A DNA stretch of 64,000 nucleotides from the NCBI GenBank assembly GCA_029721355.1, contig CM056607.1, positions 8,275,309 to 8,339,308 on the forward strand, given 5' to 3'. This DNA comes from Tegillarca granosa (taxonomy: Eukaryota). Positions 1 to 62,543 of the stretch are shown here, piece by piece (position 1 is the first letter of the stretch; every line of letters begins with the position of its first letter). Below the pieces are notes generated by a model. It was not told the DNA's origin and did not search any database. It was given only the letters and a program-made list of their open reading frames with translations. A program made the position numbers and the translations under genes.

Positions 1-526
1 CATCATTTTTATCTTTTTCTTTTTCTACAATAGTTTCGCTTTTAGGATTGTCTTTTTTATCAAAGTTTTCTGCAAACATGTCCAATGCATCATCATCATC
101 AATGTCTTTGGGAATATTTGATGATATTTCAGTTTTTCCTTCTAACTGTTTTAATTCATATGTTATTTTTTCATAAGTTAATTCATACACTTCCATATCA
201 CCATCCTGAAGTAAACTGTCTGCTAAACCAGTCAGTTTTAACATGTTTTCTTTTTCTTGTATTTTTTGAGGGTCTGTTTCTTGTGTTTTTTGTTTTTTCC
301 ATCTCTGACTTGCTGACTGAGTCTTTCCTCCTTTTCCACCCAGTCTTCGTAATGCTTTTACAATAGATTCACCAGGTTTTAAAAGTGACAACATTTCTTT
401 GTAAATGGATTTTTTGTCTACTTCTTCTTGTTCCTCATCTGAACTTTCTTCCATTTTGTTAGTCTTTGGCTGTTCCTTAATTTTTACCCAATCAATATTG
501 TCCATCCAATTATCCCTAATCTCAGA
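1..526 (-). CDS. CD2BP2: CD2BP2 homolog, coding exon 3 (partial, continues beyond window start). It encodes ...SEIRDNWMDNIDWVKIKEQ...KEMLSLLKPGESIVKALRRLGGKGGK...LDMFAENFDKKDNPK...
   Basis: Minus-strand acceptor tttcag at 527-532. A long open frame runs to position 1. Strong similarity to the human CD2BP2 middle region (IRDSWLDNIDWVKI, LLPRETVAGALRRLG, LDMFAEE), recalled from memory. Confidence 0.8.
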
Positions 527-1009
527 CTGAAAGTAAAACAAAATCAATCAAAAGAATTACTTATTTCTCTACATTTTCACTGTTGCTTGTCTAAATTAAT
601 TGTTGTTTTTTTTTTAATCTATATTCCAGTTAATCATTCTGTAAAGAAATAATCTCAAACAAACACATATTAATATACAAATTCACATTTTTTTAAAATT
701 TAGGTGAATATTTTAATATAAAATTTCAAAACCTTAAAATGTGGAGTCTTGTATTCAAGTACTGGATAAGTTAACATATAGATGAAAGTTACAAATTTTC
801 AAGACATGGTGCTTTACATAAAGTTTAAAAAGGACTTTTGGTTTCTACCAAAAATATTTTAAGATTTACTATGTGACGTCACTGTGACCTAGAATGTGAG
901 TCAATTATTTAAAGTTTGTAAAGAATCATACTTTTATATGTGAAGTTTTAAGCTTCTACACATGTCGTTTCGTGCAAAAATATACATTTAAAGGTATTAC
1001 TCTTTCTAC

Positions 1010-1128
1010 CTTCTTATCAAATATGTACATTCCATCCTTGTCAAAATGTCCTTCTTCCATTTCTTCTTTCATATTGAATGGTGTTATGGATATTCCTTGG
1101 TCATGGTCTATCGTAGCATCTTCTTGTC
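1010..1128 (-). CDS. CD2BP2: CD2BP2 homolog coding exon 2, (G)QEDATIDHDQGISITPFNMKEEMEEGHFDKDGMYIFDKK
   Basis: Acceptor ttttag and donor GTAGAA on the minus strand. 119 nt, phase-consistent with exons 1 and 3. Matches the human ITPFNLQEEMEEGHFDADGNYF motif. Confidence 0.85.
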
Positions 1129-1390
1129 CTAAAACACACCAATATGTGTTATGTTAAAAAGTAATGATATTAGTTTTGATAAACAAGAATACTGAAATTC
1201 ATATGCCATTCTATCATATTTGGGGTAGCAGCCAAACCCCGCAAGAAGGATTTTAAATTTTAAACTTATTTTCTGTCCTAAATGGGATGTTTATTGATGT
1301 TAAACAGTAATGATAAAATACATATGTTGCAACAGTATACAAATTATAACATACTAGTGGTTATAAATCTATTGATTTTCATATAAAAAC

Positions 1391-2869
1391 AAGAGGCCCA
1401 TGGGTCTTAACGCTCACCTGAAGATATTGTCCAATGCAGTTTGCAAAGTGCAATAGGCAATATATTAAGTACAGAAACTTTAAAAGTTTTCTCAAGTTAA
1501 GAAATCTCACAAAACTTAATCAGAAATATATCCACTCACATTTCGTTTATAAGTAGCTTATATAATATGCATGAAGTAATTGTAGTGCAATGAATAATTT
1601 CCAAATCATAAATCAATTACAGTATACTAACGCAGCTATGCCCTTGACCTTTGAACATATATGACCTCTAAATATATATGATTGTCATGTCAATACCTAC
1701 AATATTCTAATATTCATGCCTATACAAAAAGTTAATAATTTTCAAGATATTTAGCAATTTAAGTCTTCTTTTGCGGCTGTGACCTTGACCTTTCAATATA
1801 TGACCTTGAACCATATATCAAAATGATCGTCATGTCAATACCTACAATATTCTAATAAACATGCCTATACAAAAGGTTAATAGTTTTCAAGATAATTAGC
1901 AAATTGTCTTCTTTTGCAGCTGTGACCTTGACCTTTCAACATATGACCTTGAACCATATATCAAAATGATCGTCATGTCAATACCTACAATATTCTAATA
2001 AACATGCCTATAAAAAGGTTAATAGTTTTCAAGATAATTAGCAATTTAAGTCTTCTTTTGCAGCTGTGACCTTGACCTTTCAACATATGACCTTGAACCA
2101 TATATCAAAATGATCGTCATGTCAATACCTACAATATTCTAATATTCATGCCTATACAAAAGGTTAATAGTTTTCAAGATAATTAGCAATTTAAGTCTTC
2201 TTTTGCAGCTGTGACCTTGACCTTCCAACATATGACCTTTAACCATATATCAAAATGATTGTCATGTCAATACCTACAATATTCTAATATACATGCCTAT
2301 ACAAAAGGTTAATAGTTTTCAAGATATTTAGCAATTTAAGTCTTCTTTTGCAGCTGTGACCTTGACCTTTCAACATATGACCTTGAACCATATATCAAAA
2401 TGATCGTCATGTCAATACCTACAATATTCTAATATTCATGCCTATACAAAATGTTAATAGTTTTCAAATATTTAGCAATTTAAGTCTTCTTTTGCAGCTG
2501 TGACCTTGACCTTTCAATATATGACCTTGAACCATATATCAAAATGATCGTCATGTCAATACCTACAATATTCTAATATACATGCCTATACAAAAAGTTA
2601 ATAGTTTTCAAGATATAGTGACAAATATATAATTTTTATCAAATTCCCCACTCAGTGCCTCACAATTTCCCCATTTTGAGTCCCATGGCTACCATTTGTG
2701 CAAATCTGAAAATAGATGACCTAAGGATGTTATAAATGAAATAACTAAGGTATATCTCTTGTAGATTCAGAGGAGAAGATTTTTAAAGTTTTTCACTATT
2801 TCCCCCCTTATGGGGCCCCAAGGGGACATAACTCCTTCATTTCAGCTTTCAGCTCAGGTGAGCTAAAAA
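1391..2869. mobile_element. MITE-like non-autonomous element (copy A) with GCTCACCTGA-type terminal inverted repeats and an internal satellite array. It lies in CD2BP2 intron 1.
   Basis: Left end aagaggcccatgggtcttaacgctcacctgaag (about 1391-1423). Right end cagctcaggtgagctaaaaacc (about 2851-2872). The termini are mutually inverted (core gctcacctga). Both ends are homologous, in inverted orientation, to the ends of the element at 37762-38895. No ORF. Confidence 0.6.
1620..2630. repeat. Satellite-like tandem array, about 143-144-bp unit x ~7, inside MITE copy A
   Basis: gtcatgtcaatacctacaatattctaata recurs at 1681, about 1831, about 1974, about 2118 and onward. Units are >90% identical. Confidence 0.85.
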
Positions 2870-2963
2870 CCTTGTTAAACTAGTGCTATTCAATACCTAA
2901 AGTTTACAGTAGTTAATGCAACTTAATATACATGTATTTTATGAAATATATAAATGCACAGTG

Positions 2964-3004
<41 letters not shown>
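2964..3004. repeat. (TG)n microsatellite
   Basis: Direct reading. Confidence 0.95.
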
Positions 3005-3006
<2 letters not shown>

Positions 3007-3179
3007 AAACAGTACAAAATTAATATTATCATATCATTGCAAGGAATCCAAAATAAACACTACAGAACAAAGAATAAGCATTACAAGGGCCAGTCCCTAT
3101 CAAAGTTATATGAGTAATGTGAAATAATAAATACAATTACGTTTGGCTAAAACCAATACTGCATAATGTTAGGTGTATT

Positions 3180-5043
3180 GTCAACTTGTCCCACCTTCAT
3201 TTTAATAACTTGTCCCAATATTTTTACAAACTCGTCCAACTTTTATTGGCTGCATATTTTTTACTCTAATTTTAATTACCAGCTCTTTCCACTTTCAAAA
3301 CCAACCTGTCATAGTTTTTCCCTACACATTCCACTTTGTAAGGGAAGTTTTAAAATCTTTTGTTTGTTTTTGGAGAATTCTGCTATAGTAATTCTACAAA
3401 TGTTAACAATTACCGGTAAGTATCCTGCTATATGTATCTGAGCATATGTTCTCTGGCATTCTAGGCTCAATAATGTAGGTGCTGCAAGTAAATTCTATAT
3501 TTATATCATCTCATAAACCAAGTTGGTGGTCCTCTGAAGAAATTCCTACAACTATCTTTTTTTTTAAATTAAACATTAAATTAATTGTCGATAATACATG
3601 TTTACCGCTTGGTTTCTTACACAGGAAAACCTGAAACAGCGCGTCTATAGTCAAAATTTCATATGTACTGCCTGAAGCAGATAAAAGGCAAAACAAAGTT
3701 TACTTGAAACAAATAACTATGGAATGTCATTATAAAAAGACGCAAATTCCAACCGAGTGTGTGTGTGCATGTGTGTGCGTGTATGTAAAATTGTGAACAA
3801 TGAATACTTTAAATCAGGAAATTAATGCGAGCAAGAAATTAATGCGAAAAATGTGAGGCCTGTTTTATCGCATTAATTTCTTGTGGCATTTTATTTTCCG
3901 CTTTCTGTATGTTTATGGTAAATTGAGTTATCTCCCTTAACAGGAAGTTGTTATCGTAGCTGATTATTTGGAGCATCTTCTCATTCAGCAGTTATTTTTT
4001 TGCTGTTTATTTCCTACTGGGAATTTTACTACGAGTAGAATCGTGACTGATACATCATTTTGAACCTTAAATGGGACATCAAATTGACAGTATAGTGGTT
4101 ATAAGTAATCTAACATTTTAAACTTGTGAATCGAAGGCAAAGATCAGTTATACACATGCCAACATGGACATCCTTATTTTAATTTTATTTTAATAAAATT
4201 CCCAAGCGTTATATTTGTTTTTGTTTTTTTAAAGACTACGTGTTTCTTTGTTCTGACAATCCTTTACCACCCGGGTTAATTTAACGTGTCATCGGCGCAT
4301 AAAAATGTACCCTCAACACCCTTTGCATATGTTAACTACCGCTTGTTTTAATAATGTCTACCAAAATTTTGTTTATAACGTGTTTATAGATTAAGGAAAA
4401 CATAAGATAAATATTTCTGAGTACATAATTTAATGTTTATAAATTATAATTGTAAGATAAAAGATTGGCAAAATTTTTAAAAATTGCAATTTAAAAAATC
4501 ACATTAATTTCAATACACATTTTACTTCAAAATCAGCAATTCGTATTAATTTCACGATTTACAGTATATCAATACACCAATTATTTAAAAATAAAACATT
4601 TACACACAAAAAATAAATACATTGTATATGTTAGAAAAATAACATGGTACCAATTGGTAGCATAGTGTTTAAACACTAGAAAAACCATACTTAACATTAG
4701 CAGTACAAAATGGTCAAACAAGATGGTACGAACTGGTTATGGTACGAACTGGTCATGGTACAAAATTGTTTTCAATATGGTACGAAATGGATGGTTCAAA
4801 ACGGTTATGGAACGAAATGACTACAAACTGTTATGAACTAACCAGAGGCGTTATAAATATCCAAACAAAATAATGGTGAACTTGCTGCCAGTTCCAAGTT
4901 TGTGTCAGTTATGTGTACGATCAGGTGTTTAGAAAAATTGGGATGAGATAGATAAAAATGTGGGACAAGTTAGTTTTACACAGGAGACAAGTTGGTTTCG
5001 GATATTGGACAAGTTGGTAAAAATAAAATTGGGACGAGTTGAC
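3180..5043. mobile_element. Non-autonomous DNA transposon-like element, about 1.86 kb, with 13-bp TIRs (GTCAACTTGTCCC / GGGACGAGTTGAC) and clustered sub-terminal repeats of the TIR core. It lies in CD2BP2 intron 1.
   Basis: Left sub-terminal aacttgtccca x3 at 3181-3240. Right sub-terminal gggacaagtt-type x4 at 4957-5043, in inverted orientation. Internal short tandem repeats at 4690-4860 (tggtacgaactgg units), a (GT)-rich patch at 3755-3790, a small hairpin at 3822-3880. No long ORF. Confidence 0.55.
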
Positions 5044-5147
5044 TTGTATCAACCTTATTTATTAAAAGGTCTATGTCACTTTACTGCAGTATAAGGTCTG
5101 ATTGCCTCTGTAAATTATCTAGCAAACATACACAGAAAATGTTTCAC

Positions 5148-5298
5148 CTTCTATATCATCATCTTCTAACACATCGTATTGTTCAACATCATCTTCTTCG
5201 TCGCTGTCAAGCGAATGTTTTTCTTTGAAACGGCGAGTCTGATCGCCGCCACCAGTATCACCACTTTCCTGTTGAAATTGCACTTTACGCTTCGACAT
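5148..5298 (-). CDS. CD2BP2: CD2BP2 homolog first coding exon, MSKRKVQFQQESGDTGGGDQTRRFKEKHSLDSDEEDDVEQYDVLEDDDIE(G)
   Basis: ATG is the reverse complement of 5296-5298. Donor GTGAAA below 5148. The N-terminus resembles human MPKRKVTFQ...RFKGKHSLDSDEE. The junction to exon 2 reproduces the conserved EG|QE. Confidence 0.85.
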
Positions 5299-5830
5299 TC
5301 TGTGATCTTAAACTTGATCAAAATAGCTTCTAGAATAGCATATATAAAATGTATGCTTAAAACTCTTGTTAGTTCCTAACTTCCTAAACACTTCAACACA
5401 CGTTTGCTTTGCGAACTCTGGTCGGAAGTTTTAAATTTCGTTTACATAAACGGGTTTCCAAAATGTGCTAACCTTTTATCGGCGCAGTACTAGATTGCCG
5501 AACGGGCACCTGTTTATTGTAAAAATTAGTCAATTTACAGATTAGCAAAAGGTAAACGAACAAAACGAATATGCTAATATTTAAAGTTTTATTCCATTTA
5601 TTCCCTTAAAACTAAAAGAAGAATATTCAGTTAATTAAAGTTTTATCTTTAAAAAAATCAAAATAAATTGTAACATTTAAGTTCAAAATTGTTTAAGTTT
5701 ATTGTATTTTCGTTGTTTCGAACGATCATCTGAAATTTCAATTACATTCAATGGCGACTGTATTTCTTGGTTACCAATGATTGACCTCAATGGATTTTGA
5801 ACTACTTCAGCAAGATGCTGGGTGCGTATG
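5299..5830. promoter_or_regulatory. Putative bidirectional promoter / 5' UTR region between CD2BP2 (minus) and the SANT-BTB gene (plus). The region is locally CpG-containing.
   Basis: It lies immediately upstream of the CD2BP2 start codon. CpG dinucleotides cluster at 5400-5530 and 5700-5760 within an otherwise CpG-poor AT-rich context. A donor-like ctgg|GTGCGT at about 5816-5823 could end a plus-strand non-coding first exon. Confidence 0.3.
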
Positions 5831-8268: not shown

Positions 8269-10379
8269 TTTAAGAACAATACAGCAACATTCCGTAAGGA
8301 ATTAAATTAAGCAGTTTATTTCCAATCACACTGAACATTGCTGCCTTGTATACTCTTTCCCTGAATCTAATTAAAACATGATGAAAGTGAAATATGAAAT
8401 GTAAAACTAAGGACATGTTGTAAAACTTTATTAAAACCTGCAACATAATAAATATTTATGACACAGATCTGTGATATTTAATTATTTCCATTTACCCATT
8501 TAAACTGCATGGAACCAGTACATCATTTGCTGTGAATGAAAAGCAGTGAAATTAGTATACATAAGACAAATGGCTAATTCCTTACAAGTTGGTGTCAGAA
8601 GTGAGATACTATAATTCGTACTACCAGGTAATACCAAATAAGTTTACATGAACAATAACAGAATCTAAAATAACAATGAGAGTCATATATTTTCATTTGC
8701 CTTGTGAAATTCCCATAGCTGCAAGCTTGAGAGCCGTTGTAATTATTACTGACAATGAATGTCAAAAAATTTTGTCACTCCGTGTATGAATACATATAAA
8801 ATGCAATACACAATCCGGAACTACATTATCATGGGTAAACAAACATGACTGTCACGTCACGTTTGTTTACATTCGAGACGAGACTGAAAAACACATTTAC
8901 GAGATATTACAAAGTAAAATCAAAGAAATTAATAAAATAATATTTTGATAACATATATAGGCACCTGGCTGATATTCACCGTAATATTGACATTGTGAGA
9001 GACAGAGTGGTGTTTTTGATGGCCTGTTGAAAGAACAGACAACAACAGATCAGTCAAAACCATCAAACCACAAAAATTTTTTGAACAATCGGATCTTTAA
9101 AAAATTCTTCCTACCTTGACAAAGCTGCTATATATATACCCTATTATTTTGAGACAATGTGTAATGGTACAACTTGTCAATCAATTTTGTGTCTCGCGGG
9201 ATGTAAATTTCAAGTGATGTAAATTTCAATTGGAATTAGATTCACGCATGTATGCCACATCCAGTGAAAATTGTCTGTTTCACATGCTGTGTTTGTTGAT
9301 CGGAAAAACTGAAAAATCATCTACATGCTTTTAATCAATTTACAAGGGATACAATAGGAACTCCTCAAAAATACAATATATGGTTTAAGTACTACACAAC
9401 TCCTTGCTAACCTTAAAACGATAATTTTCTAAACTTTGAGAGATATTTGCACCACACCAGGCGTAAAGAATAAGTATACTTCTCACTGCTTTGCTGTCTA
9501 CATTTGAATGATACCGAGTTTGAAACTCGGCACATTATGATAGAGTGAATCTCAACCTAACAATGTCGACATTCCAGAAGAAATCTCTCGGTAAATCCCT
9601 GTCTACTCACATATCACAGATTCGAAACCCACATGCTTGGCCATTGAAAATTATCCCTCAGCTACAGTTCCCCCCTTCCCATTTCAGATTCACAAATTTC
9701 ACTTCCAACATTTAGCCAGCAATCTTTTACTCCAAACTTCTTTGCAAATTGAAATGGGGCCACACAGGTGCACCTGATTTTCGACTGAAATACAAATGTA
9801 TAGTCCACAAATAACAACACATTTATCATTGATATTCAAATTTTATATATATTATTTATATCCAATATTCTAAAAAATTCATTATATTAATGAAAAATGG
9901 AGAAAATACCATCAAAATACCTGATAACACTATAATTGTTCAAACCAAAACTCCCCGTTGTTACCCCACATTAAAAACATTGCGGATTAATAATGTGTCG
10001 TTCTCGGTCTTAAATTCAGCTGTTGCGTCTACTGGACTCTCCCGATGTGCATGTGTTATAGATGAGAATTTTTTTTCTTACAATAAATGAATAATTTTTT
10101 TTAAAAATATTAAACGAAAATATAACAATTGAACTGTTTTAAAATGGTGTTCATTGTTGGTATGAAGGCAACAACTTTGCAAGCAAACGGAATAACGCGC
10201 ACCATTTTAAAACAGTTCAATTGTTAAATAAAAACACAAGTTCAAATTGTATTTAGTGTTAGATCTGTATTTTATGTGTTCTTTGCCACCTTGGGACCAT
10301 ATAAAGCATATACATAATACATTTAACTTCTTTTTTTTTCTGCAGTTACAGAACCTTTTGAGAGGTAAACTATTGTGAC

Positions 10380-11098: not shown

Positions 11099-11175
<77 letters not shown>
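11099..11175. repeat. (CT)n microsatellite in SANT-BTB intron 2
   Basis: Direct reading. It produces the RERERE ORF artefacts on the minus strand. Confidence 0.95.
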
Positions 11176-14616: not shown

Positions 14617-14703
14617 TAAATTGTTTGCTAAGAAGCTAGAGAAGTTGTTTGACACAGAGACAGTTAACCCAGATTCACCAGAGACAGCTTCGTCAATATT
14701 TAG
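14617..14703 (+). CDS. SANBR: SANT-BTB gene exon 8, (S)KLFAKKLEKLFDTETVNPDSPETASSIF(R). Its 3' 58 nt plus the donor are tandemly repeated about 29 times in the downstream intron.
   Basis: Acceptor ttattacag and donor GTAAGT. Phase-consistent with anchored exons 7 and 9. Confidence 0.7.
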
Positions 14704-16500
14704 GTAAGTTGTTTGACACAGAGACAGTTAACCCAGATTCACCAGAGACAGCTTCGTCAATATTTAGGTAAGTTGTTTGACACAGAGACAGTTAACCCAG
14801 ATTCACCAGAGACAGCTTCTTCAATATTTAGATAAGTTGTTTGACACAGAGACAGTTAACCCAGATTCTCCAGAGACAGCTTCGTCAATATTTAGGTAAG
14901 TTGTTTGACACAGAGACAGTTAACCCAGATTCACCAGAGACAGCTTCATCAATATTTAGGTAAGTTGTTTGACACAGAGACAGTTAACCCAGATTCACCA
15001 GAGACAGCTTCGTCAATATTTAGGTAAGTTGTTTGACACAGAGACAGTTAACCCAGATTCACCAGAGACAGCTTCGTCAATATTTAGGTAAGTTGTTTGA
15101 CACAGAGACAGTTAACCCAGATTCTCCAGAGACAGCTTCGTCAATATTTAGGTAAGTTGTTTGACACAGAGACAGTTAACCCAGATTCACCAGAGACAGC
15201 TTCATCAATATTTAGGTAAGTTGTTTGACACAGAGACAGTTAACCCAGATTCACCAGAGACAGCTTCGTCAATATTTAGGTAAGTTGTTTGACACAGAGA
15301 CAGTTAACCCAGATTCACCAGAGACAGCTTCGTCAATATTTAGGTAAGTTGTTTGACACAGAGACAGTTAACCCAGATTCACCAGAGACAGCTTCATCAA
15401 TATTTAGGTAAGTTGTTTGACACAGAGACAGTTAACCCAGATTCACTAGAGACAGCTTCGTCAATATTAAGGTAAGTTGTTTGACATAGAGACAGTTCAC
15501 CCAGATTCACTAGAGACAGCTTTGTCAATATTTAGGTAAGTTGTTTGACACAGAGACAGTTAACCCAGATTCACCAGAGACAGCTTCATCAATATTTAGG
15601 TAAGTTGTTTGACACAGAGACAGTTAACCCAGATTCACTAGAGACAGCTTCGTCAATATTTAGGTAAGTTGTTTGACACAGAGACAGTTAACCCAGATTC
15701 ACCAGAGACAGCTTTGTCAATATTTAGGTAAGTTGTTTGACACAGAGACAGTTAACCCAGATTCACTAGAGACAGCTTCGTCAATATTTAGGTAAGTTGT
15801 TTGACACAGAGACAGTTAACCCAGATTCATTAGAGACAGCTTCGTCAATATTTAGGTAAGTTGTTTGACACAGAGACAGTTCACCCAGATTCGCTAGAGA
15901 CAGCTTTGTCAATATTTAGGTAAGTTGTTTGACACAGAGACAGTTAACCCAGATTCACCAGAGACAGCTTTGTCAATATTTAGGTAAGTTGTTTGACACA
16001 GAGACAGTTAACCCAGATTCACCAGAGACAGCTTCGTCAATATTTAGGTAAGTTGTTTGACACAGAGACAGTTAACCCAGATTCACCAGAGACAGCTTCG
16101 TCAATATTTAGGTAAGTTGTTTGACACAGAGACAGTTAACCCAGATTCACCAGAGACAGCTTTGTCAATATTTAGGTAAGTTGTTTGACACAGAGACAGT
16201 TCACCCAGATTCACCAGAGACAGCTTTGTCAATATTAAGGTAAGTTGTTTGACACAGAGACAGTTAACCCAGATTCACCAGAGACAGCTTCTTCAATATT
16301 TAGATAAGTTGTTTGACACAGAGACAGTTAACCCAGATTCACCAGAGACAGCTTCTTCAATATTTAGGTAAGTTGTTTGACACAGAGACAGTTAACCCAG
16401 ATTCACCAGAGACAGCTTTGTCAATATTTAGGTAAGTTGTTTGACACAGAGACAGTTAACCCAGATTCACCAGAGACAGCTTTGTCAATATTGAGGTAAG
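14641..16500 (+). repeat. 64-bp minisatellite x ~29 that reiterates the 3' 58 nt of SANT-BTB exon 8 plus its GTAAGT donor. Every copy carries a potential 5' splice site.
   Basis: The unit gtaagttgtttgacacagagacagttaacccagattcaccagagacagcttcgtcaatatttag recurs with period 64 (tagg at 14701, 14765, 14829 and onward). Copies are >95% identical. A few carry ataagt or ttgag variants. Confidence 0.9.
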
Positions 16501-17078
16501 ACAGACAATCTCTTGTTAACTTCTTCAGTTTGATTTGTTCCGAGTTATAATATTTAATCCTGAAGAATTGGATTTGTCTTGTATTTATTTCAGAAAGGCA
16601 AGACAAAACTTAAAATTAAGACCAACTTTACAAATTTTTTTAGATTTCCTAGATTAATGTAGTATTTTTTGAGAAATCCTGATGACCAGCATTTCAGCAA
16701 CAATAATATAACCCACTAAAATATAAACTTAGTGGAGAAGTGTATGTGTCATCATCATCATTGGTTTCTTTTGATTAACATGCAGGTTCAGAAGCGGGTT
16801 AGTAGGTTCCCTTCTAGATGACTGGCTAGCTGCATGCATGGCAAATTTCACCCCGTGTCTCCATTTCTTATGATCATGAGGGTTGGTTGTCAGTGGGGAA
16901 ATTCATTTGCCTTTAAACATATGATACTGTCTATAATTGAATAGTTGAAGAATATATAAATTAAGTGTTTATATATGAATCATTAACTTGAAATAATTTA
17001 CACTTTCAGATGTTCAGTATGTAAAAAGTTGCTGACTAAAACATTAGAAAAAAGGGTTAGATGTATGCCAAGCAGGTA

Positions 17079-17354: not shown

Positions 17355-17670
17355 AATAACTGTTGATAAAAGAGGAAAGTTAATGTATTGTCATATAAAG
17401 GACAATAGTTTTGATATAAATGACTACCTCTTAGAACTTAAAACACAACTTAAAAACTGGAGGGAGGTTTACTGGAGAATCTGGGGGTTAATTAATTATC
17501 TAACATGTACAAGGTGTTTGGAGACATTCCCATGTACAGAGTTTGGTCACTGTAAATATCATCCTGAACCCCCGAGATACGACAATGAAGGTGGTTTGTC
17601 ACAATGTATCGGGACTTATCCTTGTTGTCATCAGAAAACCCTTCGTTTTGATCCAGTTCAACAGAGCAAG
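17355..17670 (+). CDS. SANBR: SANT-BTB gene exon 9, ITVDKRGKLMYCHIKDNSFDINDYLLELKTQLKNWREVYWRIWGLINYLTCTRCLETFPCTEFGHCKYHPEPPRYDNEGGLSQCIGTYPCCHQKTLRFDPVQQSK (Cys/His-rich)
   Basis: Anchored to ORF 17383..17775. Acceptor atttcag and donor GTAAAC. Confidence 0.8.
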
Positions 17671-20750: not shown

Positions 20751-21480
20751 TATTTGGAGTTACTTTAAAGCCATAACAAGGCATTTTAAAGACAAAGCAT
20801 TTTCCTTTCCAGACTGATCTGGTGAATTTCATCACAGAAGAAAACACAACATTGTGACTCTGGAATGTTTTCTCAAGTTTTGTTTTTAAGTGATGGAAAT
20901 TTATGGCAAATTACAAGTTCAACAAGGCAGACAAAATTATAATCTCATTTATTTATATTATTTCCATTTTAAATTCATGGTCACAAAAACATTTATTTTA
21001 AAGGAAAAATATATAGCTGTTTCAAATTGAGTTTTGAATTTTAGATATTCATGAAAAATTACTGGTTATTAACAGGAAGTTGTAGTTTTTGGGTATAAGA
21101 ACCACACACTAGATTAAACAATGTATTAAGTTAATGATCTTTTTGTTTAACCAATCACAGCATTTTGTTTTCCAAAGCCAAATTTTTGGGAACATTATTT
21201 CATACATTGTACTGGTACAGCATGAACAATTTAAGATATGACTTACAGATCTTGATAAAAAAAACATGTTGACTGATACCTACACTTTTGGTATTTAAGA
21301 AATATTCTGGTACATACCAACTACCAAATCATGGATATCTAGATTTTTTGAAACAGCTATGTCCATATAATTTTATGGGTATATAGATAGAGTCTGTAGT
21401 AGATTACTTTAATTTTCAACTGCACTATGATTCTGTATTCCTCATTAGATCATTTTACACCATTTATTTAGATTTTAGAT

Positions 21481-21530
<50 letters not shown>
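21481..21530. repeat. (CT)n microsatellite
   Basis: Direct reading. Confidence 0.95.
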
Positions 21531-21535
<5 letters not shown>

Positions 21536-21884
21536 ATATTGTTTATTATTTTCTTACAATCCATCAATGGACACATCCTTAGACAAGAATGCATGTACAT
21601 ACACATGCACTTAACATACCGTAGTATACCTTACACACCTAGTACACATTATGGCTTTTATACCCCTGCAAAATTACTATAGATTTGCTTTTGAAGCCTA
21701 TGACGATTGTAACAGTATAATAAACTGGTTGTCAGCAATTTTTACATGATGCCATTGCCAGTGCATGTACTAACCTCTAAAGGCAGCTGTAAGCTGTAAG
21801 CACACCCTTGTACAAAGCAGACCAAAAAACAACTAACAAAACTTGACCACAAGGAGCTTATGTTTAGATTTCCAGTAATCAAGA

Positions 21885-22140
21885 TTAATAAAAAATTGTC
21901 TCACACAATTGATGAAAAAATTGCTGACACAGCATAAATGTCACACAATTGACGAAAAAATTGCTGACACAGCATAAATGTCTCGCACAATTGACAAAAA
22001 AATTGCTGACACAGCATAAATGTCTCACACATTGCTGACACAGCATAAATGTCTCACACATTGCTGACACAGCATAAATGTCTCACACAATTGACAAAAA
22101 AATTGCTGACACAGCATAAATGTCTAACACAATTGACAGA
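21885..22140. repeat. About 41-bp tandem repeat x ~6 (ttgctgacacagcataaatgtctcacacaattgacaaaaaaa) in SANT-BTB intron 10
   Basis: Direct reading. It produces the cysteine-rich ORF artefact 21885..22070. Confidence 0.85.
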
Positions 22141-23149
22141 AAAAATTGCTGAATCAGCATAAAACACTATGTAACAAAACAAACTTTATAAAATCACAAG
22201 CAAGTAAAACAATGAAATTAAGTTGGTTAATTATGATCCATACAACATGCTGAACACTTCACAACAGAGATACGGTGATCAGAAATCTGTCTAGCAAAAT
22301 ACTGATATAGGGATATATCACAACAAAGTATCTGTTTAGAAATTTTTTATTAGATAAATCTTTATCTATATGTCGTCTGTTTGGTGAAGTTTTAATCTCT
22401 CGTTGATATCATATGTGTTTATTTTCATGTAACATAAGTTTAATGAAATCATTAAATGTTTGGGCATTTGATGATTACTGTATATTAATTTTGATTTACC
22501 ATAAAGAATTTATTTATATGTGTTGTATTAAAATTTTGAAATTTTTAAATACCAGTGAAAATAAATCCTTTCATATTTTAAGTTTACATTTTGTGTACTA
22601 CATATGAAAGTGATTTAGTCTTGTTTAAGATTTGGTTCTTTTTATGTCCAAAAATTTCTTTTTACACCTCGTATCTCTAAAATGAAGAAAAAATTGACCT
22701 CAATAAAGGTGTTTCAGTTACACAAACAACAAACAAAACACAGACATTCAACAAATATTGGAAATCTAAAATGGTGTAAACATGATTTGATGCAGTGTTT
22801 TTATGTGTAGAGTTGTAGTGTAGTTGTCTCCCCTGACATCTGTATATCTATAATAATGTAGTATTTTGGTCTTTGTATGGACACAGATTAACTTAACCAC
22901 AAGATTTGTTTACTATATTAATAATATCATGGTGACAGGAAGTTAATATTACTAGTGCATGATGGGTAAGAGTAAAATAAATAATCTGCTTAATATTATA
23001 TACATGTACTGTTAATGGTTATTTGGTCCAAAAATGAAAGGAAGGATCGTGATATTTTGATTTTTGAAATAAAGGTTATTAGAGTTTATAATGTGCCATG
23101 TGATACCCCTTAATGTTTGTGCAGAGTTATTGTCTCTCTGGTGTAATAA

Positions 23150-23660
23150 GAAAGTAGAAAATCAGGGATTTTTCTGGCCACTCACAGGGTCCGGTAAAGG
23201 GACCTATTCCCAATGCCAAAAAGCATACATTTTTCCCAATTGTGTAGGTAAAAATTCCCAAATGATCCTGCTTTAAGAAACTTGAGAAAAAGTGAAAAAA
23301 AACTCTATATTTTTGGTGTAGCTTGTATATCTTTATAATAACCTGTATTTATGCACAATTTGATTTATACTCAATGGGGATCTGGTAGAATGGGAGCAAC
23401 TCATAAAACAACTTTCTCAGATGTTTGTATTGAAGCCAGTCTATGAAGATATTGTGTTAACATCTGAATGATTTGGTACAAATGAGTGACTACCAGCATG
23501 TATCAAAATAATAAATATTCCAGGCAAAATATTTGACGTGCTGACAATGTGAAAATTTTAAAGTTTAATGAAAATTTTTCCCAAAATGCTGTTATTGTCA
23601 ATGATTTTCCCAATTTAATCCCAAGGTCCCTTTCCCAAAATGGCCAGAAAAATCCCTGAA
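23150..23660. mobile_element. Short inverted-repeat (MITE-like) element
   Basis: cagggatttttctggccactcacagggtccggtaaagggacc at about 23160-23205. Its reverse complement tggccagaaaaatccctg, with ggtccctttccc, lies at about 23620-23658. Confidence 0.45.
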
Positions 23661-25010: not shown

Positions 25011-25641
25011 ATTTCATAACCTGTGGAAAGAATTGTTCTGCACAAAGACTTTGGAGTATCACATGATATGCTGGTGATTCCCATTGTGTTGCTGCATCAG
25101 GATTTTCACAAGTATTTGATCATCATTGCATGATAAGATGTACAGAGTATGACTTCGTCAGCTACATAAGCCCAAAATCTACAACAACAAAAAACAAATA
25201 GTTAAAATTAATTAATAAAAAATGTTTTCCAAATATGTAGTAAACACAAGGAATTTAAAGAAACATTTATATGGTATGCAGCAGAACTTTGATAATTCAT
25301 AATTCAGTATTATTTTCTCAAATACCATAGATATTTTTGTTCCAGAATTTTTCTCTGCCTTTCCTAAAACTAAAAAAAAACCAGCAAGATCTTTAAATAA
25401 AAACAGAAGTTGATTTTCAAAATTTCACTGTGTAAAGGGCATACAATGTTTTTGAAATTTCACTTTGTAATATTTTTCAATTCTAAATTTTGCATTATCT
25501 GGATGCAAAAAAAACAAAACAAAAAACACTAATTCAAACCTTCGTTAATTGCTTCTGTTCTTTGTTGTATCCGGGGACATGTCACTGGTAAATTTTTGTA
25601 ACCAATGGTTACCATGACTTTGTTTGTTATATATTTATCAG

Positions 25642-25768
25642 ACTACAAGACCACAACCTAGACTTCAAGCATTAACAGTTGAAAGAGAACTATCCTTTGA
25701 GTATGATGATATAGGAATGGGAGAAAGCGATGATGAACTAGGGGATGATGAACAACCCAAGACAACAG
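25642..25768 (+). CDS. SANBR: SANT-BTB gene exon 12, TTRPQPRLQALTVERELSFEYDDIGMGESDDELGDDEQPKTT(G). Its 3' end plus the donor are tandemly duplicated in the downstream intron.
   Basis: Acceptor tttatcag and donor GTAACT. Phase-consistent. Confidence 0.65.
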
Positions 25769-26360
25769 GTAACTTATTGATTAAATAAGACAGGAGAAAG
25801 TTATGATTAACAACAAAAGACAACAGCTAACTAATAACTAAAATTGAGAAAGTACTGATGAACTAGGAAATAATGGACAACCTAAGGCAAAAGGTAACTG
25901 ATGAATTAAATAAAACAAGAGAATGTGATGATGAAAAAGGGGTGATGAACAACCCAAGACAACAGGTAACTTATTGATTAAATAAGACAGGAGAAAGTTA
26001 TGATTAACAACAAAAGACAACAGGTAACTAAATGATTAAAATTGAGAGAGTACTGATGAACTAGGAAAAAGTGGACAACCTTAGGCAAAAGGTAACTGAT
26101 TAATAAAATAAAAGAAGAGAATGTGATGATGAAATAGGGGTGATGAACAACCAAAGACAACAGGTAACTGATTAATTAATTAATTAAAACAGGAGAAAGT
26201 GATGATCAACAACCCAAGACAACAGGTAACTGATTAGGGTAATTAAATAAAACAGGAGAAAGTGATGATTAACTAAAGGTTGACAAAACAACTGATTACT
26301 TATACATAAAAAGGGAGAAAGTGATAATGAACCTGAGAATCACAAACAACCAATAACAGC
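25769..26360 (+). repeat. Tandem duplications of the 3' end of SANT-BTB exon 12 plus its donor (gatgatgaacaacccaagacaacagGTAACT motif x ~9, sub-units about 65 bp, higher-order about 190 bp)
   Basis: Motif copies at about 25750, 25940, 26000, 26140, 26200 and 26330, interspersed with gtaactgat/attaaataa blocks. Confidence 0.8.
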
Positions 26361-37761: not shown

Positions 37762-38895
37762 CATTTTTAGCTCACCTGAGCACTCAAGTGAGCTATAGCG
37801 ATGGGTTATTGTGCATCGTGCAATCTTAATCAAACATTTTCAGAATGATCTTCTTGACAAAAGCAAGCTCAAATTCATATATGGGCCATGTTGGGTCAAT
37901 AAGTAGGTCACTGTCAAATTGTAGAAAAACCTTGTTAACACTACTGAGGCCCCAATTTTAGTCCAATCTTCATCAAACTTTCTCAGAATGATCTTCTTGA
38001 CATAAGCTAGCTCATGTTCGTATATGGGCCATGTTATTCAATAAGTAGGTCGCTAGGTGAAATTGTAGAAAAACTTTGTTAACACTCCTGAGGCCCAAAC
38101 TTTCGCCCAATTTTCATCAAACTTGCTCAGAATGATCCTCTTGACAAAAGCTAGCTCCATTTGGTATATGGGCCATGTTGGGTCAATAAGTAGGTCACTA
38201 AGTCAAATTTTAGAAAAACCTTGTTAACACTTCTGAGGCCCCAATTTTAGTTCAGTCTTTTTCAAACTTCGTCAGAATGATCTTCTTGACAAAAGCTAGG
38301 TCAACTTCGTATATGGGCCATGTTGGGTCAATAAGTAGGTCACTAGGTCAAAATGTAAGAAAACCTTGTTAACACTCCTGAGGTTCAAATTTTAATCCAA
38401 TTATCATCAAAGTTAGCCAGAATGATCCTCCTGACAAAAGCTAGCTTAAGTTCGTATATGGGCCATTTTGGGTTTATAAGTAGGTCACTAGGTCAAATTG
38501 TTAAAAAAAAAACCTTGTTAACACTCCTGAGGCCCCAAATTTAGTCCAATCTTCATCAAACTTGGTAAGAATGATCCTCTTGACAAAAGCTAGCTCGGGT
38601 TCGTATATGGGCTATGTTGGGTCAATAAGTAGGTCACTAGGTCAAATTATATAAAAACCTTGTTAACACATATGAGGGATCAATTTTAGACCAATCTTAT
38701 CAAATTGGCTTAGAATGATCCTCCTGACAAAAGCTAGCTTAAGTTCGTATATGGGTCATGTTTGGTCAATAAGTAGGTCACTAGCTCGAAATATAGGAAA
38801 AATCTCCTTTAAGAATAGAAGCTCCAGTTTGCTAAAATCAAGCTGAGTGTACATCATTTCAGGTGAGCGTCCAGGGCCTTCATGGCCCTCTTGTT
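37762..38895. mobile_element. MITE-like element (copy B) of the same family as 1391-2869 but in opposite orientation, carrying an internal 143-144-bp satellite
   Basis: Left end tttttagctcacctgagc is the reverse complement of the copy A right end. Right end ttcaggtgagcgtccagggccttcatggccctctt is the reverse complement of the copy A left end. Confidence 0.65.
37800..38800. repeat. Satellite-like tandem array, 143-144-bp unit x ~7, inside MITE copy B. Its sequence is unrelated, or only distantly related, to the array in copy A.
   Basis: tatatgggccatgttgggtcaataagtaggtcac recurs at 37878, 38021, 38165 and onward. Confidence 0.85.
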
Positions 38896-49326: not shown

Positions 49327-49889
49327 CTGTGAGAGAAAAAATAACAAACAGTCACTTTATTAATCCTAAAAAAAATTGTAATAAATTACATATAAAGTTG
49401 TCTGCTGAGTAAACTAATTTTGTACAGTTTCAGTCATGATTAGAAGACATAATTTGTGTTTATATATTGATAGACCACAGACAATAGTTTTATATCACAT
49501 TTGCTACACATTTTTTTATATTATATTTGCTAGCACATTTGCTACACATCTTTGTTTTTACCACATTTGCTTGTACATTTCCTACAACTTTTTGTCTGAC
49601 TCATATAAAATTCTGTTTTAAAAACGGATTAGATACTTGTTTTTATCATAATTTTACAATACAAAATCAATCTTCCTGATATTTTTTTTACCAAATTTGT
49701 TTTACTATGTCAAATAAAATTTGAACATAACATCCAATTTATTTTTTTCATTTGGAAGACATTTTAAATCTTTATGCAATAAGTATGTCAATAAGTGAAA
49801 TAATAAGTAACAAATGGGTAATATAAGAATATTTTAAACTACTTTTTGCTTTGTCTCATTCATAAATATGTCTATTGTGATAAACTGAC

Positions 49890-50290
49890 ACTCCATTTCG
49901 TTGATCAGAATATGACACAGGACAGATTGACTGACACTCCACTATACCAGTATATGATCACAGGACAGATTGACTGACATTCCAGTTTGTATACCAGTAA
50001 ATGATCACAGGACAAACTGACTGACACTCCACTATACCAGTATATGATCATGAGACAGACTTACTGACACTCCACTATACCAGTATATGTTCACAGGGCA
50101 GACAGACAGATTCAGTTTGTATACCAGTATATGATCACAGGACAAACTGACTGACACTACTATACCAGTATATGATCACAGAACAGACTGACAGACACTC
50201 CACTATACCAGTATATGATCATGAGATGGACTTACTGACACTCCATTTTGTTGATCAGTACATGTATATGATCACAGGACAGACTGACTG
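49890..50290. repeat. Degenerate, longer-unit (~55-60 bp) tandem repeats ancestral to the adjacent 45-bp array, in a WSB1 intron
   Basis: Units such as gatcacaggacagattgactgacactccactataccagtatat grade into the 45-bp unit. Confidence 0.75.
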
Positions 50291-52110
50291 ACACTCCAGT
50301 TTGTTGATCAGTATATGATCACAAACATTCTATTGACAATCGAGTCACAGAATAGACCGACTGACACTCCACTATACCAGTATACAATCACAGGACAGAG
50401 ACTGACACTCCAGTTTGTTGATCAGTATATGATCACAAACATACTACTGACACTCCAGTTTGTTGATCAGTATATGATCACAAACACTCAACTGAGACTC
50501 CAGTTGATCAGTATAAGATCACAAACATTCTACTTAGACTCCAGTTTGTTGATCAGTATATGATCACAAACATTCTACTGACACTCCAGTTTGTTGATCA
50601 GTATATGATCACAAACATTTTACTGACACTCCAGTTTGTTGATCAGTATATGATCACAAACATTCTACTGAGACTCCAGTTTGTTGATCAGTATATGATC
50701 ACAAACACTCTACTGACACTTCAGTTTGTTGATCAGTTTATGATCACAAACACTCTACTGAGACTCCAGTTGATCAGTATAAGATCACAAACATTCTACT
50801 TAGACTCCAGTTTGTTGATCAGTATATGATCACAAACATTCTACTGACACTCCAGTTTGTTGATCAGTATATGATCACAAACATTTTACTGACACTCCAG
50901 TTTGTTGATCAGTATATGATCACAAACATTCTACTGACACTCCAGTTTGTTGATCAGTATATGATCACAAACACTCTACTGACACTTCAGTTTGTTGATC
51001 AGTATATGATCACAAACACTCTACTTAGACTCCAGTTTGTTGATCAGTATATGATCACAAACATTCTACTCATACACCAGTTTGTTGATCAGTATATGAT
51101 CACAAATACTCTACTGACACTCCAGTTTGTTGATCAGTATATGATCACAAACATTCTACTTAGACTCCAGTTTGTTGATCAGTATATGATCACAAACACT
51201 CTACTGACACTCCAGTTTGTTGATCAGTATATGATCACAATCACTCTACTGACACTCCAGTTTGTTGATCAGTATATGATCACAAACACTCTACTGACAC
51301 TTCAGTTTGTTGATCAGTATATGATCACAAACACTCTACTTAGACTCCAATTTGTTGATCAGTATATGATCACAAACACTCTACTGACACTCCAGTTTGT
51401 TGATTAGTATATGATCACAAACACTCTACTAAGACTCCAGTTTGTTGATCAGTATATGATCACAAACACTCAACTTAGACTCTAGTTTGTTGATCAGTAT
51501 ATGATCACAATCACTCTACTGACACTCCAGTTTGTTGATCAGTATATGATCACAAACATTCTACTGAGACTCCAGTTTGTTGATCAGTATATGATCACAA
51601 ACACTCTACTTAGACTCCAGTTTGTTGATCAGTATATGATCACAAACATTCTACTTAGACTCCAGTTTGTTGATCAGTATATGATCACAAACATTCTACT
51701 GACACTCCAGTTTGTTGATTAGTATATGATCACAAACACTCTACTTAGACTCCAGTTTGTTGATCAGTATATGATCACAAACACTCTACTGACACTCCAG
51801 TTTGTTGATCAGTATATGATCACAAACATTCTACTGACACTCCAGTTTGTTGATTAGTATATGATCACAAACACTCTACTTAGACTCCAGTTTGTTGATC
51901 AGTATATGATCACAAACACTCTACTTAGACTCCAGTTTGTTGATCAGTATATGATCACAATCACTCTACTGACACTCCAGTTTGTTGATCAGTATATGAT
52001 CACAAACATTCTACTTAGACTCCAGTTTGTTGATCAGTATATGATCACAAACACTCTACTTAGACTCCAGTTTGTTGATCAGTATATGATCACAAACATT
52101 CTATCAAAAA
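50290..52110. repeat. Homogenised 45-bp minisatellite x ~40 (gatcagtatatgatcacaaacattctactgacactccagtttgtt) in a WSB1 intron
   Basis: gatcagtata recurs at 50551, 50596 and onward with period 45. Because 45 = 15 codons, it creates the repetitive MITNILLTLQFVDQY ORFs in the track. Confidence 0.95.
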
Positions 52111-58781: not shown

Positions 58782-59545
58782 CTTATAAATACAAGAAAAT
58801 TTTGATTGCATCTATGTATAATTTTAAATGCAGGCTGAAGAGGGTTTTTGTCAGAGTACCTGAGATTTTGTAAACATTGAAAGAAGGGTGGCATCAGTCA
58901 TCATCAGAGGGGTGGCATCAGTGAGACTGTAAAATATGTCCAATTTTCAAATCATCTTCAGATCAACCTAATATTAAACATATTGTGACATCACATTATG
59001 GCAAAACGTGTATCATGTCTTTAACTCTAGGTATGGCATAGAAATCTTATATGGCTAAATAGTAGTAGAAAAGCTCTTTTCACAAAAAGGCAAGAGTTTT
59101 CCATGCCAATCCTGTTAACTTTTTATATATATGAGATTTCTTTATCTCACCTTAGCATAGGATCTCTTTTTCACAACATTACATTACACAAATAAAATTG
59201 ATAATGTCATTGTTTTTCATGTGAGAAGGTCAAAACAAATTTATTTCATCATTTTAGGAAGATACAGATGCTGGCAGTAAAACTAAGCATCTGATGCTAA
59301 TATATGTTTACAAATTGTCTCTTGATGTTGTAAATGAGAGAGGAAAGGTATCATCTGACAGTAACAGTGCAAGACAGAGAAACTCAATGAATATTTCCAA
59401 TGTCCAGAAAGAGCTTTAGAACAGAAAATTAATCATTCCTGTCTCAAGATATATCAATCTTACACTGTCACTTGTATAGGATTCTTATATTCTGGGCTTT
59501 GTACAGGTGAGCTAAAAACAACCATGCATGATGATGTAGACTTAC

Positions 59546-59659
59546 CCATCATCAGAGATTGAAACTAAATGCATTCCATCAGATGAAAATGAGATTCCTC
59601 GAACATAATGATCATTAGCGCCTCCAGCAAATATTGGTCTTGGAGGGGGAAACAAATGT
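59546..59659 (-). CDS. WSB1: WSB1 homolog exon, (G)HLFPPPRPIFAGGANDHYVRGISFSSDGMHLVSISDD(G)
   Basis: Acceptor ttacag and donor GTAAGT. 114 nt, phase-consistent. Near-identical to human HLFPPPTPIFAGGANDRWVRSVSFSHDGLHVASLADD. Confidence 0.85.
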
Positions 59660-61402
59660 CTGTAAATAAAGAAGATTTAATTGAGATAAAGATTTGTAGA
59701 ATTTTATAAATGAAAATCTGCTACCGGTATATACAAATACCAAGGCAATTCATGTAATATATATTATGAAATATATATATAATACCCTAGCTTGTTAAGT
59801 TTGATACACAGAAAACTAGAAACAAATAAGATAAGAACTGTTAATTAACTTTTTATTCATGTAATTTAAGCTTTTCACAGATTTTGTGGCTTCAGGGCCA
59901 GTCTTTCAAACTGAAATTCAAGAGTTGTAGGTTCATACTTAAACTATTACTTGAGAAACATGCAGGCATGTCTCTGTGCATGCTATAACAATTCACAAGT
60001 AGAAATGACTGAACAGAGTGATCAAGCCATTTATCAATGTATCTCCATGATTTACACAGAGCCTTATATTATAGCCAAGGGCATCCAATCATTTAGCCAG
60101 TAAGGACAAGATGTATTTTTAGTCACTCATCATCATGTAAACTGTATAACAGAAACTATCTTAAAATCCTGTGTGAGGCAAGAAGAGTTCAATTTTTAAA
60201 TACTGAGACTGGGTTATTTTTTTCCACTGGTCACCCGTTCTTACTGCCTTAATTAAACCTGTAACAGCTACCTACAGGTGACTTAATAAAAATACTCACT
60301 ATACTGATCATACATGTAGTAAGACCACCATTTTTACAAATAAACTGAGGTATTGATCTTAACTATAAAGAGAATAAACCACATTTACATCATATATCCT
60401 CATATTTTTGTGAAGTCAGTCAATTACAATCTGCCCTGACATGCATAAAGTATAGCTAATCTAATAACCATAACTGAACAAAAGTGATTAATAAAATTAC
60501 ATGTACCGGTATGTGTACATTGATTATTTTTTCAAAGATTTATTCTTTTTTTATTATTCCATCTGAAGAATTTCTGGAAGAACAAAGGTGCCATTAAGAA
60601 TCTAAAAGACTAAAATTAGGTTAAGTCGAATCTCACTTTGAAATGGTTTTGTTACATAACTTGACTGGCAACATTTTTATGTTATTGGTATTCTCGTATT
60701 AGAAATTTCAACAACATATAGTGAAATGTTTTCTATTTCAATCAAAACTTTACGAAATGAAGACAGAACAGCAACACTAAAAGATTAAATAATCAATTAA
60801 ATCTCAGGTGAATCTCAACCCAAAAAAGCCCATAAAGCAACATTCTAGATCCATGATTATGTATACCAGGATATTTTTTATATACATGTAATAGTAATTA
60901 AAAGTGAGAGAATCAGAAGGACCCAATCCCTATCATTGATTTTGTCTTAGTATAGAAAAGAAATGTGAGGTGAAAAGGGCACTGAGCTTTACCTGTAATA
61001 AGAGTTGGATCTGATTCAACAATGATTTATAGTGGACCATGAGTCTAGGAAAAAAACTGTTGGTTTTCTGTATTTGTAAACTGCAATTTCATCAGTTTAA
61101 CCTACCAGTACTCAAACTAACTAGAGCCCGAGATCGACAGCAAGACATTGTCTTAAAAGTAGCTTGTCATAGATTTTGGACTCTAATTACTTAGAGTATA
61201 GTTTAACCATCTCATAAAAGTGTCTGCTGCAACTTGACATTTTAGTAGTATACATGTACATACTTACTGGTAGTTTTTTTTTAAATCAAAATAAATTATT
61301 TTTTCTATTAGTTTTCAAATTTTACCTCAGATTCTTAATTTCAAGCATTTTAAAGTCTAACATTAAATTTTATTAAATTCTGAAATATGCAAATCAACTT
61401 AC

Positions 61403-61575
61403 CCAAGCTCCAAAAGGCTATCACAGGTATATGGATCCCAGATGATAACTTTAGTATCATAAGAAGCTGTTGCAACTAAAGCACCATCTGGTGAGAATTC
61501 ACAACAAACAATGTCATGATAATGACCAGTTAGTTCTTTAATGTGATAATTTTTCTTCACGTTGCATATAGCAAT
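61403..61575 (-). CDS. WSB1: WSB1 homolog exon, IAICNVKKNYHIKELTGHYHDIVCCEFSPDGALVATASYDTKVIIWDPYTCDSLLEL(G)
   Basis: Anchored to ORF 61399..61599. Acceptor ttttccag and donor GTAAGT. Matches human GHHHDVVACDFSPDGALLATASYDTRVYIWDP. Confidence 0.85.
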
Positions 61576-62159
61576 CTGGAAAAAAAAGTTATTTTGCATA
61601 AGAAAATTGTTTAGTGCAAAACAATGTCAGCCATTACCCTCAATGCTGTTGATTTGCATGAGTCTAATTCTTGCTTTTATGACATGTACTTTCAATCATT
61701 CCTCTTACAAACTTACCAGGCCTTTGCAAAATTTGTCTCAGTCTGGTGGACTGGCTGTGATTTCCAAAATATTTAAAGAATTTTGTTTTTTTTTTTGGTC
61801 AAATCTAATAGTATTGTAAATTTTTTTAAATTAGTATTTTTTTTTTTAATTTTATTTTATTTTATTTATTTATTTATTTATTTTTTTTTTTTTTTGGGGG
61901 GGGGGGTTATTTTAGATTTTGATCTCCAGCTGGAAGCAAATGTGTTTACATTGGTTGACAATTTAAGGTTTTTTTTTTAGAAACTCAATACGACTGCTGA
62001 AAGTTGAGGTAAAATGTAAAACCTGTACTGATCATCAACATAAATGTATTTAGTCATAACCCTCACACCCCCTCCCCCACCCCCACCACCACCACCACCA
62101 CCCTATCTCTAAACTTAGGCCATTTTATCTTTCAGATACTAGACTTTATATGAACCTGT

Positions 62160-62400
62160 CAACTGGACTTAATTCACCTGCAGAGTGCGTTAATGGTGTT
62201 TTGTCGTGACTGACAAGATATTTCTCCTTTAACATGGCAGCCAGTTGGGATATATGAAGGAACCCTGGTAATCCTAGAAAACCTCTAAACTTCAATAAGC
62301 ATACTAACGAACTAGCTCACACAGGTACTACCTAGGTAGAATTTGAACCTAGACAGCAAGAGGCTAATTTTAATAGACTACCAACCTATTGGAAACCCAG
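62160..62400. mobile_element. SINE-like copy in a WSB1 intron
   Basis: gtagaatttgaacctagacagcaagaggctaa, and similarity to other SINE tails in the window. Confidence 0.4.
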
Positions 62401-62543
62401 AAAAATCTGATGGTCTTAAGGATTTGTTAAAACCTGATTGCAAGTATATAAAAATTGGGTACTATACGAATAAACACCATATTTCATATGATGTCAGATG
62501 CTTTGGAAGAATAAATATCATAAAGGTTCATAAATATACTAAC

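Follow-up and report, generated by a model that had tools for sequence, protein, structure and literature searches.

An exon/5′-splice-site junction reiterated as a 64-bp minisatellite in an intron of the SANBR gene of Tegillarca granosa

The DNA analyzed here, referred to below as the window, is a stretch of 64,000 nucleotides from the bivalve Tegillarca granosa, with the composition of AT-rich eukaryotic DNA (~31% GC). Conceptual exons on its plus strand, spread over positions 10380-33885, assemble into a SANBR/KIAA1841 protein. A search with this protein yielded 761 homologs, the best of which were bivalve proteins named 'SANT and BTB domain regulator of class switch recombination'. Assignment of the gene to the SANBR/KIAA1841 family is based on the Pfam BTB_SANBR domain (PF11822; E = 2.3e-37, 127.6 bits versus a cut-off of 26) and on full-length colinearity with orthologs. 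The T. granosa protein KUTeg_009753 is 100% identical over the aligned block, and all coding blocks of the T. granosa SANBR protein map to the window at essentially 100% by tblastn.

SANBR is flanked by two genes on the minus strand. An acidic protein gene (window positions 1-5307) lies head-to-head with it, with a first exon (MSKRKVQF...) at ~5300; at the oyster SANBR locus, the same position is taken by a GYF-domain gene. A WD40-repeat gene (59500-64000; Pfam WD40, E = 5e-24) occupies the right end of the window. Starting 19 nt past the donor of the exon ending at 11081 is a perfect (CT)38 microsatellite (11100-11175).

The coding exon on which this report centers is, by our count, the ninth coding block of the gene, rather than exon 8 as it had been numbered in the first-pass annotation. 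Its peptide is conserved across molluscs, Lingula, and primates, and the product of joining it to the next exon at 17010, ...SSIFRCSVCKKLLTKTLEKRVRCMPSR... (...SSIFRCSVCKK...), is likewise conserved from molluscs to primates. Measured from the donor at 14704, the intervening intron is 2306 nt long. The exon that follows this intron has intact, usable splice sites, and two T. granosa gene models, KUTeg_009753 and KUTeg_010165, both skip it, joining ...SSIFR straight to ITVDK. Its absence from both models is probably an annotation miss, genuine exon skipping being possible; this is of practical importance for annotation, as both published T. granosa SANBR models lack the conserved 66-nt exon just past the intron. 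The two models are located on the same 41.1-Mb chromosome and, splice-choice gaps aside, are one residue apart (NVFANEEY versus NVFTNEEY), with the window fitting KUTeg_009753. The features of the locus, together with the related arrays described below, are listed in Table 1.

Table 1. Positions of exons, splice sites, and arrays in the T. granosa window, and of donor-spanning arrays at other bivalve SANBR loci
Feature	Position	Strand	Description	Evidence
Array-host coding exon of the SANBR/KIAA1841 ortholog	14617..14703	+	87 nt, (S)KLFAKKLEKLFDTETVNPDSPETASSIF(R), phase 2 after AG; acceptor ttttattacag/TAAATT	tblastn
Authentic, upstream-most 5′ splice site	14704..14709	+	TAG/GTAAGT; exon ends before GTAAGT	Orthologous donor, reading frame
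64-bp minisatellite	14642..16500	+	29.0 units	TRF, per-unit differences, donor list, six-frame stops
Unique rest of the intron	16501..17009	+	509 nt, starts AAGACAGACAAT; acceptor acactttcag	
Next exon	17010..17075	+	66 nt, (R)CSVCKKLLTKTLEKRVRCMPS(R); conserved in all other species	
Following exon	17355..17670	+	ITVDKRGKLMY...QQS	tblastn with T. granosa protein
Second junction array, T. granosa SANBR	25721..26332	+	~10 diverged units of ~55-72 bp	TRF, sequence, junction query
Donor-spanning array, Sinanodonta woodiana	22712-23618 of its SANBR locus		42 bp x 21.6; at the junction of the 64-bp T. granosa array	
Donor-spanning array, Mactra antiquata	21612-22052 of its SANBR locus		~45-bp units	
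Donor-spanning array, Mytilus californianus	20816-21400 of its SANBR locus		Degenerate; at the junction of the second T. granosa array	
Donor-spanning array, Pinctada imbricata	5379-5560 of its SANBR locus		~22-bp units, at the end of the BTB exon	

TRF describes the minisatellite as a single array with a period of 64 and 29.0 copies (97% matches, 0% indels, score 3480). Unit-by-unit comparison found 34 variant cells among 1856 (1.83%) and a mean pairwise identity of 96.8%. The position, period, copy number (~29), and homogeneity recorded in the first-pass annotation are thereby borne out, and its structural reading, an exon/5′-splice-site junction amplified into its own intron, is right according to both TRF and the list of donors. 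The consensus unit, AAGTTGTTTGACACAGAGACAGTTAACCCAGATTCACCAGAGACAGCTTCGTCAATATTTAGGT, is the same as unit 1 at every position. Unit 1 consists of exon nucleotides 14642-14703 (the last 62 nt of the exon) plus GT or, in an equivalent reading, of the last 60 nt plus GTAA; the composition proposed earlier, 58 nt plus GTAA, sums to 62 rather than 64. Units 2-29 are intronic, and AG/GTAAGT is re-formed at the unit-unit junctions. A 3-nt AAG microhomology blurs both borders of the array (GAG/AAGTTG on the left, GGT/AAGACAG on the right), and the sequence past the last unit (GTAAGACAGAC... / AAGACAGACAAT) is probably the original start of the intron.

The 29 units fall into 13 types, and the string of types along the array (aabcdaacdaad...) contains repeated multi-unit blocks; units 3 and 26 have a double variant in common. 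This pattern of block duplication indicates recent unequal exchange, in keeping with the view that the high homogeneity of the array reflects recent expansion, and the aabcd/aacd/aad blocks suggest that such exchange is still ongoing.

A 34-nt core of the unit has 28 matches in the window, all of them inside the array, compared with an expectation of 0 from shuffled sequence; there is no copy elsewhere in the 64 kb, and a metagenome scan with the unit junction gave 0 matches. A protein search with a short query yielded no more than 3 distant fragments. A dispersed repeat or transposable element was rejected as the source of the unit, since the window holds no copy beyond the array and the unit consists of conserved coding sequence. 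We also considered whether the copy number, or the entire array, had been made or distorted by long-read assembly. The array is known from one assembly, and the exact array ORF and the annotated proteins were not located in other assemblies. However, the variants are structured (13 unit types, aacd blocks, the double variant of units 3 and 26) in a way that assemblers do not invent, and comparable arrays are found in independent assemblies of other bivalves. An assembly artefact is thus very improbable.

The dinucleotide GT is kept at 27 of the 29 donor sites in the array: 24 read TAG/GTAAGT, two read AAG/GTAAGT, and the last reads GAG/GTAAGA, whereas AT replaces GT in units 3 and 26. The tally of intact donors is therefore one authentic site plus 26 pseudo-donors. 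Every intact site is strong, agreeing with CAG/GTAAGT at 8/9 positions. The earlier description of about 29 near-identical cryptic donors holds insofar as 27 sites keep GT, each in exonic context, but two units have lost the dinucleotide, and the first site is not cryptic: it is the authentic donor, located at the same codon position as the corresponding donor in oyster, mussel, scallop, and Sinanodonta. Among the donors of the array, it alone keeps the reading frame.

Read-through past the first donor meets AGG and then, at once, TAA. Because of this, all later donors yield one and the same truncated product, ...SSIFR-stop, whatever the number of units (n) retained. The first-pass annotation had reasoned that, with 64 = 3x21+1, use of a downstream donor would shift the frame unless n was a multiple of 3; the arithmetic is correct, but the point is moot, since the TAA stops every downstream-donor product. 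Length-variable coding isoforms, which had also been suggested, are refuted on the same grounds: the stop codon lies one codon past the exon, the array is closed in all six frames (38-44 stops per frame, longest stop-free run 60 codons), and translating the exon with 3, 6, or more added units gives no open frame. With later donors, the internal exon would have to lengthen to 151 nt, to 279 nt, and ultimately to as much as 1879 nt. No AG within the units has a pyrimidine tract above 0.6, so there is no convincing 3′ splice site for unit-to-unit splicing.

To place the intron and the array in an evolutionary context, we compared the SANBR loci of six other bivalves: Crassostrea virginica, Mytilus californianus, Ylistrum balloti, Mactra antiquata, Sinanodonta woodiana, and Pinctada imbricata. 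An intron occupies the identical codon position in C. virginica (~355 nt), M. californianus (~815 nt), and Y. balloti (~2300 nt), and the position is also occupied in M. antiquata and S. woodiana, so that the orthologous intron is represented in Ostreida, Mytilida, Pectinida, Unionida, and Venerida. This comparison of orthologous introns, which had been proposed along with the original description of the array, found the exon-derived 64-bp array at none of the six loci; in Sinanodonta, the same intron holds an unrelated, mostly intronic 42-bp array. Given that five other bivalves have the intron without the array, the intron is, by this comparison, ancestral and older than the array. In Pinctada, the counterparts of the array-host exon and the next exon are fused (8557-8712 of its SANBR locus), which on the same comparison is a lineage-specific intron loss. 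A separate lineage-specific intron loss was observed in M. antiquata SANBR, where the exon ending ...DDEQPK is fused with the RVTIDPQAI exon (21406-21618 of its locus).

The Pinctada fusion prompted us to consider that the intron itself was born by tandem duplication of an AGGT-containing exon segment, as in the Rogers/Hellsten model of intron gain (Hellsten et al. 2011, Nat Commun, PMC3265369). As in that model, the segment duplicated in T. granosa contains AGGT, and Pinctada has no intron at this position. An intron gained in this way is absent from outgroups and draws both of its splice sites from the duplicated AGGT. Here, in contrast, the identical codon position is occupied in five other bivalves, which makes Pinctada the species that lost the intron, and the acceptor lies in unique sequence, 509 nt past the array. 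Duplication makes a new intron in the Hellsten case; in T. granosa, an ancestral intron merely gains copies of its donor. Intron gain was thus rejected. The related notion that the array is an exonic coding repeat runs against its six closed frames and their 60-codon limit, and we consider either origin extremely improbable.

Junction queries and TRF were applied to seven bivalve SANBR loci, T. granosa included. Donor-spanning arrays numbered six across the seven loci: five besides the 64-bp array, one of these five being in the same window (Table 1). The units of this second T. granosa array copy the 3′ end of exon 25639-25767 (...GESDDELGDDEQPKTT; GAGAAAG.GATGATGAA...CAACAG) plus its donor, CAG/GTAACT. 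The junction query found 10 extra copies downstream of this exon, and GGTAAC is still visible, by reading, at 8 of 10 sites. The array can alternatively be read as a 198-bp higher-order repeat, as TRF reports periods of both 62 and 198, with 79-90% match. It is an older array of the same type as the 64-bp one.

TRF identified 60 arrays in the seven loci, of which four span a donor, compared with 1.73 expected from random seeding; this enrichment is not significant (Poisson p = 0.098). Counting in two further degenerate donor-spanning cases seen by eye gives p = 0.009, a figure that does not compare like with like. No acceptor-spanning arrays were found in the seven loci. Duplications on the donor side would be tolerated since the first donor stays intact, whereas those on the acceptor side would not be likewise. 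The simplest account, which fits these observations, is that arrays are seeded at random in introns rich in minisatellites and that donor-side duplications are tolerated. The count in bivalve SANBR genes suggests that arrays across exon/intron borders occur fairly commonly in such introns, and that duplications are tolerated on the donor side but not on the acceptor side.

That the arrays lie on donors only, and that two SANBR junctions were each hit independently in different orders of bivalves, is suggestive, albeit from small numbers; such recurrence might point to more than chance. A broader proposition would be that donor-side-only minisatellites recur in bivalve genes, either through some form of mutation linked to 5′ splice sites or through selection for clusters of U1-binding sites, with the T. 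granosa array serving as a length-polymorphic rheostat that sets SANBR output by nonsense-mediated decay (NMD). We regard this proposition as quite improbable.

Arrays of this type are already known from human genes, of which the clam case is an extreme invertebrate example. In the 37-bp VNTR of human F7 intron 7, the first monomer lies across the exon/intron border and splicing uses the first donor alone, this choice of the most upstream site being what makes the array tolerated (Borensztajn et al. 2006, PLoS Genet, PMC1557585). The same study found that consensus-perfect pseudo-sites could draw some splicing to themselves, and that exon skipping increased as the first usable site was moved farther away (PMC1557585). 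The T. granosa locus has the corresponding architecture: an intronic array abuts the upstream exon (array 14642-16500, exon end 14703), the exon's 3′ end and the authentic donor fall within the first monomer, which is reiterated, and the exon is a genuine, conserved coding exon followed by an intron that exists independently of the array. Judged by its sequence, the array would be classed as an exon/intron-border minisatellite. In both cases an authentic donor is followed by identical pseudo-donors, with the first monomer across the border. The two differ in the makeup of the unit (4 nt of exon and 33 nt of intron in 5-9 copies in F7, versus 62 nt of exon and 2 nt of intron in 29 copies in T. 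granosa) and in the strength of the donor, which is weak in F7 (UGG/gugggu) and near-consensus in T. granosa (TAG/GTAAGT). Moreover, donor use and polymorphism have been demonstrated for F7, whereas for T. granosa both are predictions.

Other human examples are summarized in the F7 study (PMC1557585). The intron-2 minisatellite of IFI6 (6-16) has 25 pseudo-sites, and the authentic donor and the two nearest pseudo-sites are used (Turri et al. 1995); the 31-bp VNTR at the exon 13/intron 13 border of CBS has 15-20 repeats, with use of the authentic donor and two pseudo-sites (Yang 2000; Lievers 2001). Only the authentic donor is described as used in the junction repeats of LMNB2 (100 bp x 10-15) and in PDGFA intron 4 (81 bp x 16-18) (de Stanchina 1997; Bonthron 1999, cited there for LMNB2/PDGFA). 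The T. granosa array resembles those of IFI6 and CBS in that many reiterated donors abut an exon; unlike in those genes, where two nearby pseudo-sites are used, use of a pseudo-site in T. granosa would run into TAA at once. It resembles LMNB2 and PDGFA in that long units repeat the exon/intron junction and take up much of the intron, although these repeats are in other genes and other lineages. To our knowledge, junction repeats of the LMNB2/PDGFA type have no known counterpart in molluscs. With 26 near-consensus pseudo-donors in full exonic context, spaced at 64 nt and each leading to a premature stop, the T. granosa array would make a clean natural substrate for asking whether, with strong sites, molluscan splicing also obeys the F7 rule of the most upstream donor winning.

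The variants within the 64-bp array look neutral: of the 34 variant cells, 15 (C>T, G>A, G>T) sit at the unit's single CpG, and the 9-nt donor motif is no slower to vary than the remainder (1.92% of its cells versus 1.83% for the whole unit). Two GT dinucleotides have been lost, compared with 1.06 expected if variants were evenly spread. These data bear on the suggestion, made in the first-pass annotation, that the array acts as a splicing decoy or an NMD switch. In such a scheme, 26 strong U1-binding sites would be maintained by selection and would set SANBR dose, either by titrating U1 or by diverting a regulated fraction of transcripts to downstream donors, with a premature stop and NMD as the outcome. 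The strength, identity, exonic context, and even spacing of the sites are all compatible with this role, as are the immediate stop reached from every downstream donor, the second junction array in T. granosa SANBR, and the recurrence of donor-spanning arrays in other bivalve SANBR genes. Conversely, conservation of the donor motif is not above background, two donors have already been lost, and variation is dominated by CpG decay. In addition, none of the six other bivalve loci that were compared has the exon-derived array, the number of donor-spanning arrays does not significantly exceed random seeding (p ~0.1), and the pseudo-sites of the human precedents are silent or nearly so. Analysis of the sequence thus lends no support to a splicing decoy or NMD switch, and we judge a selected regulatory role of this kind decidedly unlikely.

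Together, the results indicate that the 64-bp array is most likely a lineage-specific, recently expanded intronic minisatellite whose first monomer lies across the exon/intron border. Such a VNTR is probably neutral or mildly deleterious, with splicing proceeding from the first donor and leaky premature-stop transcripts being cleared. We propose that the last 62 nt of the exon plus GT were duplicated in tandem between two AAG microhomologies, and that unequal exchange then grew the duplicated 64-bp segment to 29 units. The upstream-most donor and the 87-nt exon would have been untouched by the duplication, leaving normal splicing from 14704 to the acceptor at 17010 still possible. We expect little or no use of the 26 intact pseudo-donors, with the nearest recruited first, since splice sites are chosen in 5′-to-3′ order and exon definition favors the donor that first follows an acceptor. 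Any leaky ...SSIFR-TAA transcripts would carry a premature stop and would probably be removed by NMD. The array would have no selected function and is probably length-polymorphic. First-donor use in T. granosa SANBR is what we would predict on this basis; the two annotated T. granosa proteins simply require an in-frame donor and are hence weak evidence on which donor is used.

An alternative would be a damaging expansion in a redundant copy of the gene: splicing would prefer the donors closest to the 3′ splice site, a premature stop would end up in most transcripts, and the locus would be a duplicate undergoing decay. Such redundancy could be supplied by the near-identical models KUTeg_009753 and KUTeg_010165, and strong duplicated donors shift splicing downstream in some experimental systems; classic experiments with duplicated sites, by Reed & Maniatis (1986), Eperon (1993), and Hicks (2010), are reported to favor, at times, the site nearest the 3′ splice site. 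However, all coding blocks in the window are intact and agree with the annotated protein, mismatches at the ends of alignments falling past the splice junctions, where the comparison runs into intron. The two models, only one residue apart (splice-choice gaps aside), may be haplotigs rather than paralogs, and exon definition disfavors the 151- to 1879-nt internal exons that late donors need. A damaging expansion is therefore unlikely, and we favor the border-spanning VNTR spliced from its first donor.

Lastly, the window contains further tandem repeats. Arrays at 1678-2616 and 37821-38801 both have a 145-bp period and higher-order periods of ~435 bp; that they belong to one family was rejected, as the two show no similarity in BLASTN. 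Between SANBR and the WD40 gene, a repeat zone (49884-52103) includes a 45-bp minisatellite of 38 units on the plus strand (50401-52103, 92% match). Because 45 is a multiple of 3, this array keeps long open frames, such as one of 224 codons at 50733-51404 (LQFVDQYMITNILLT...).
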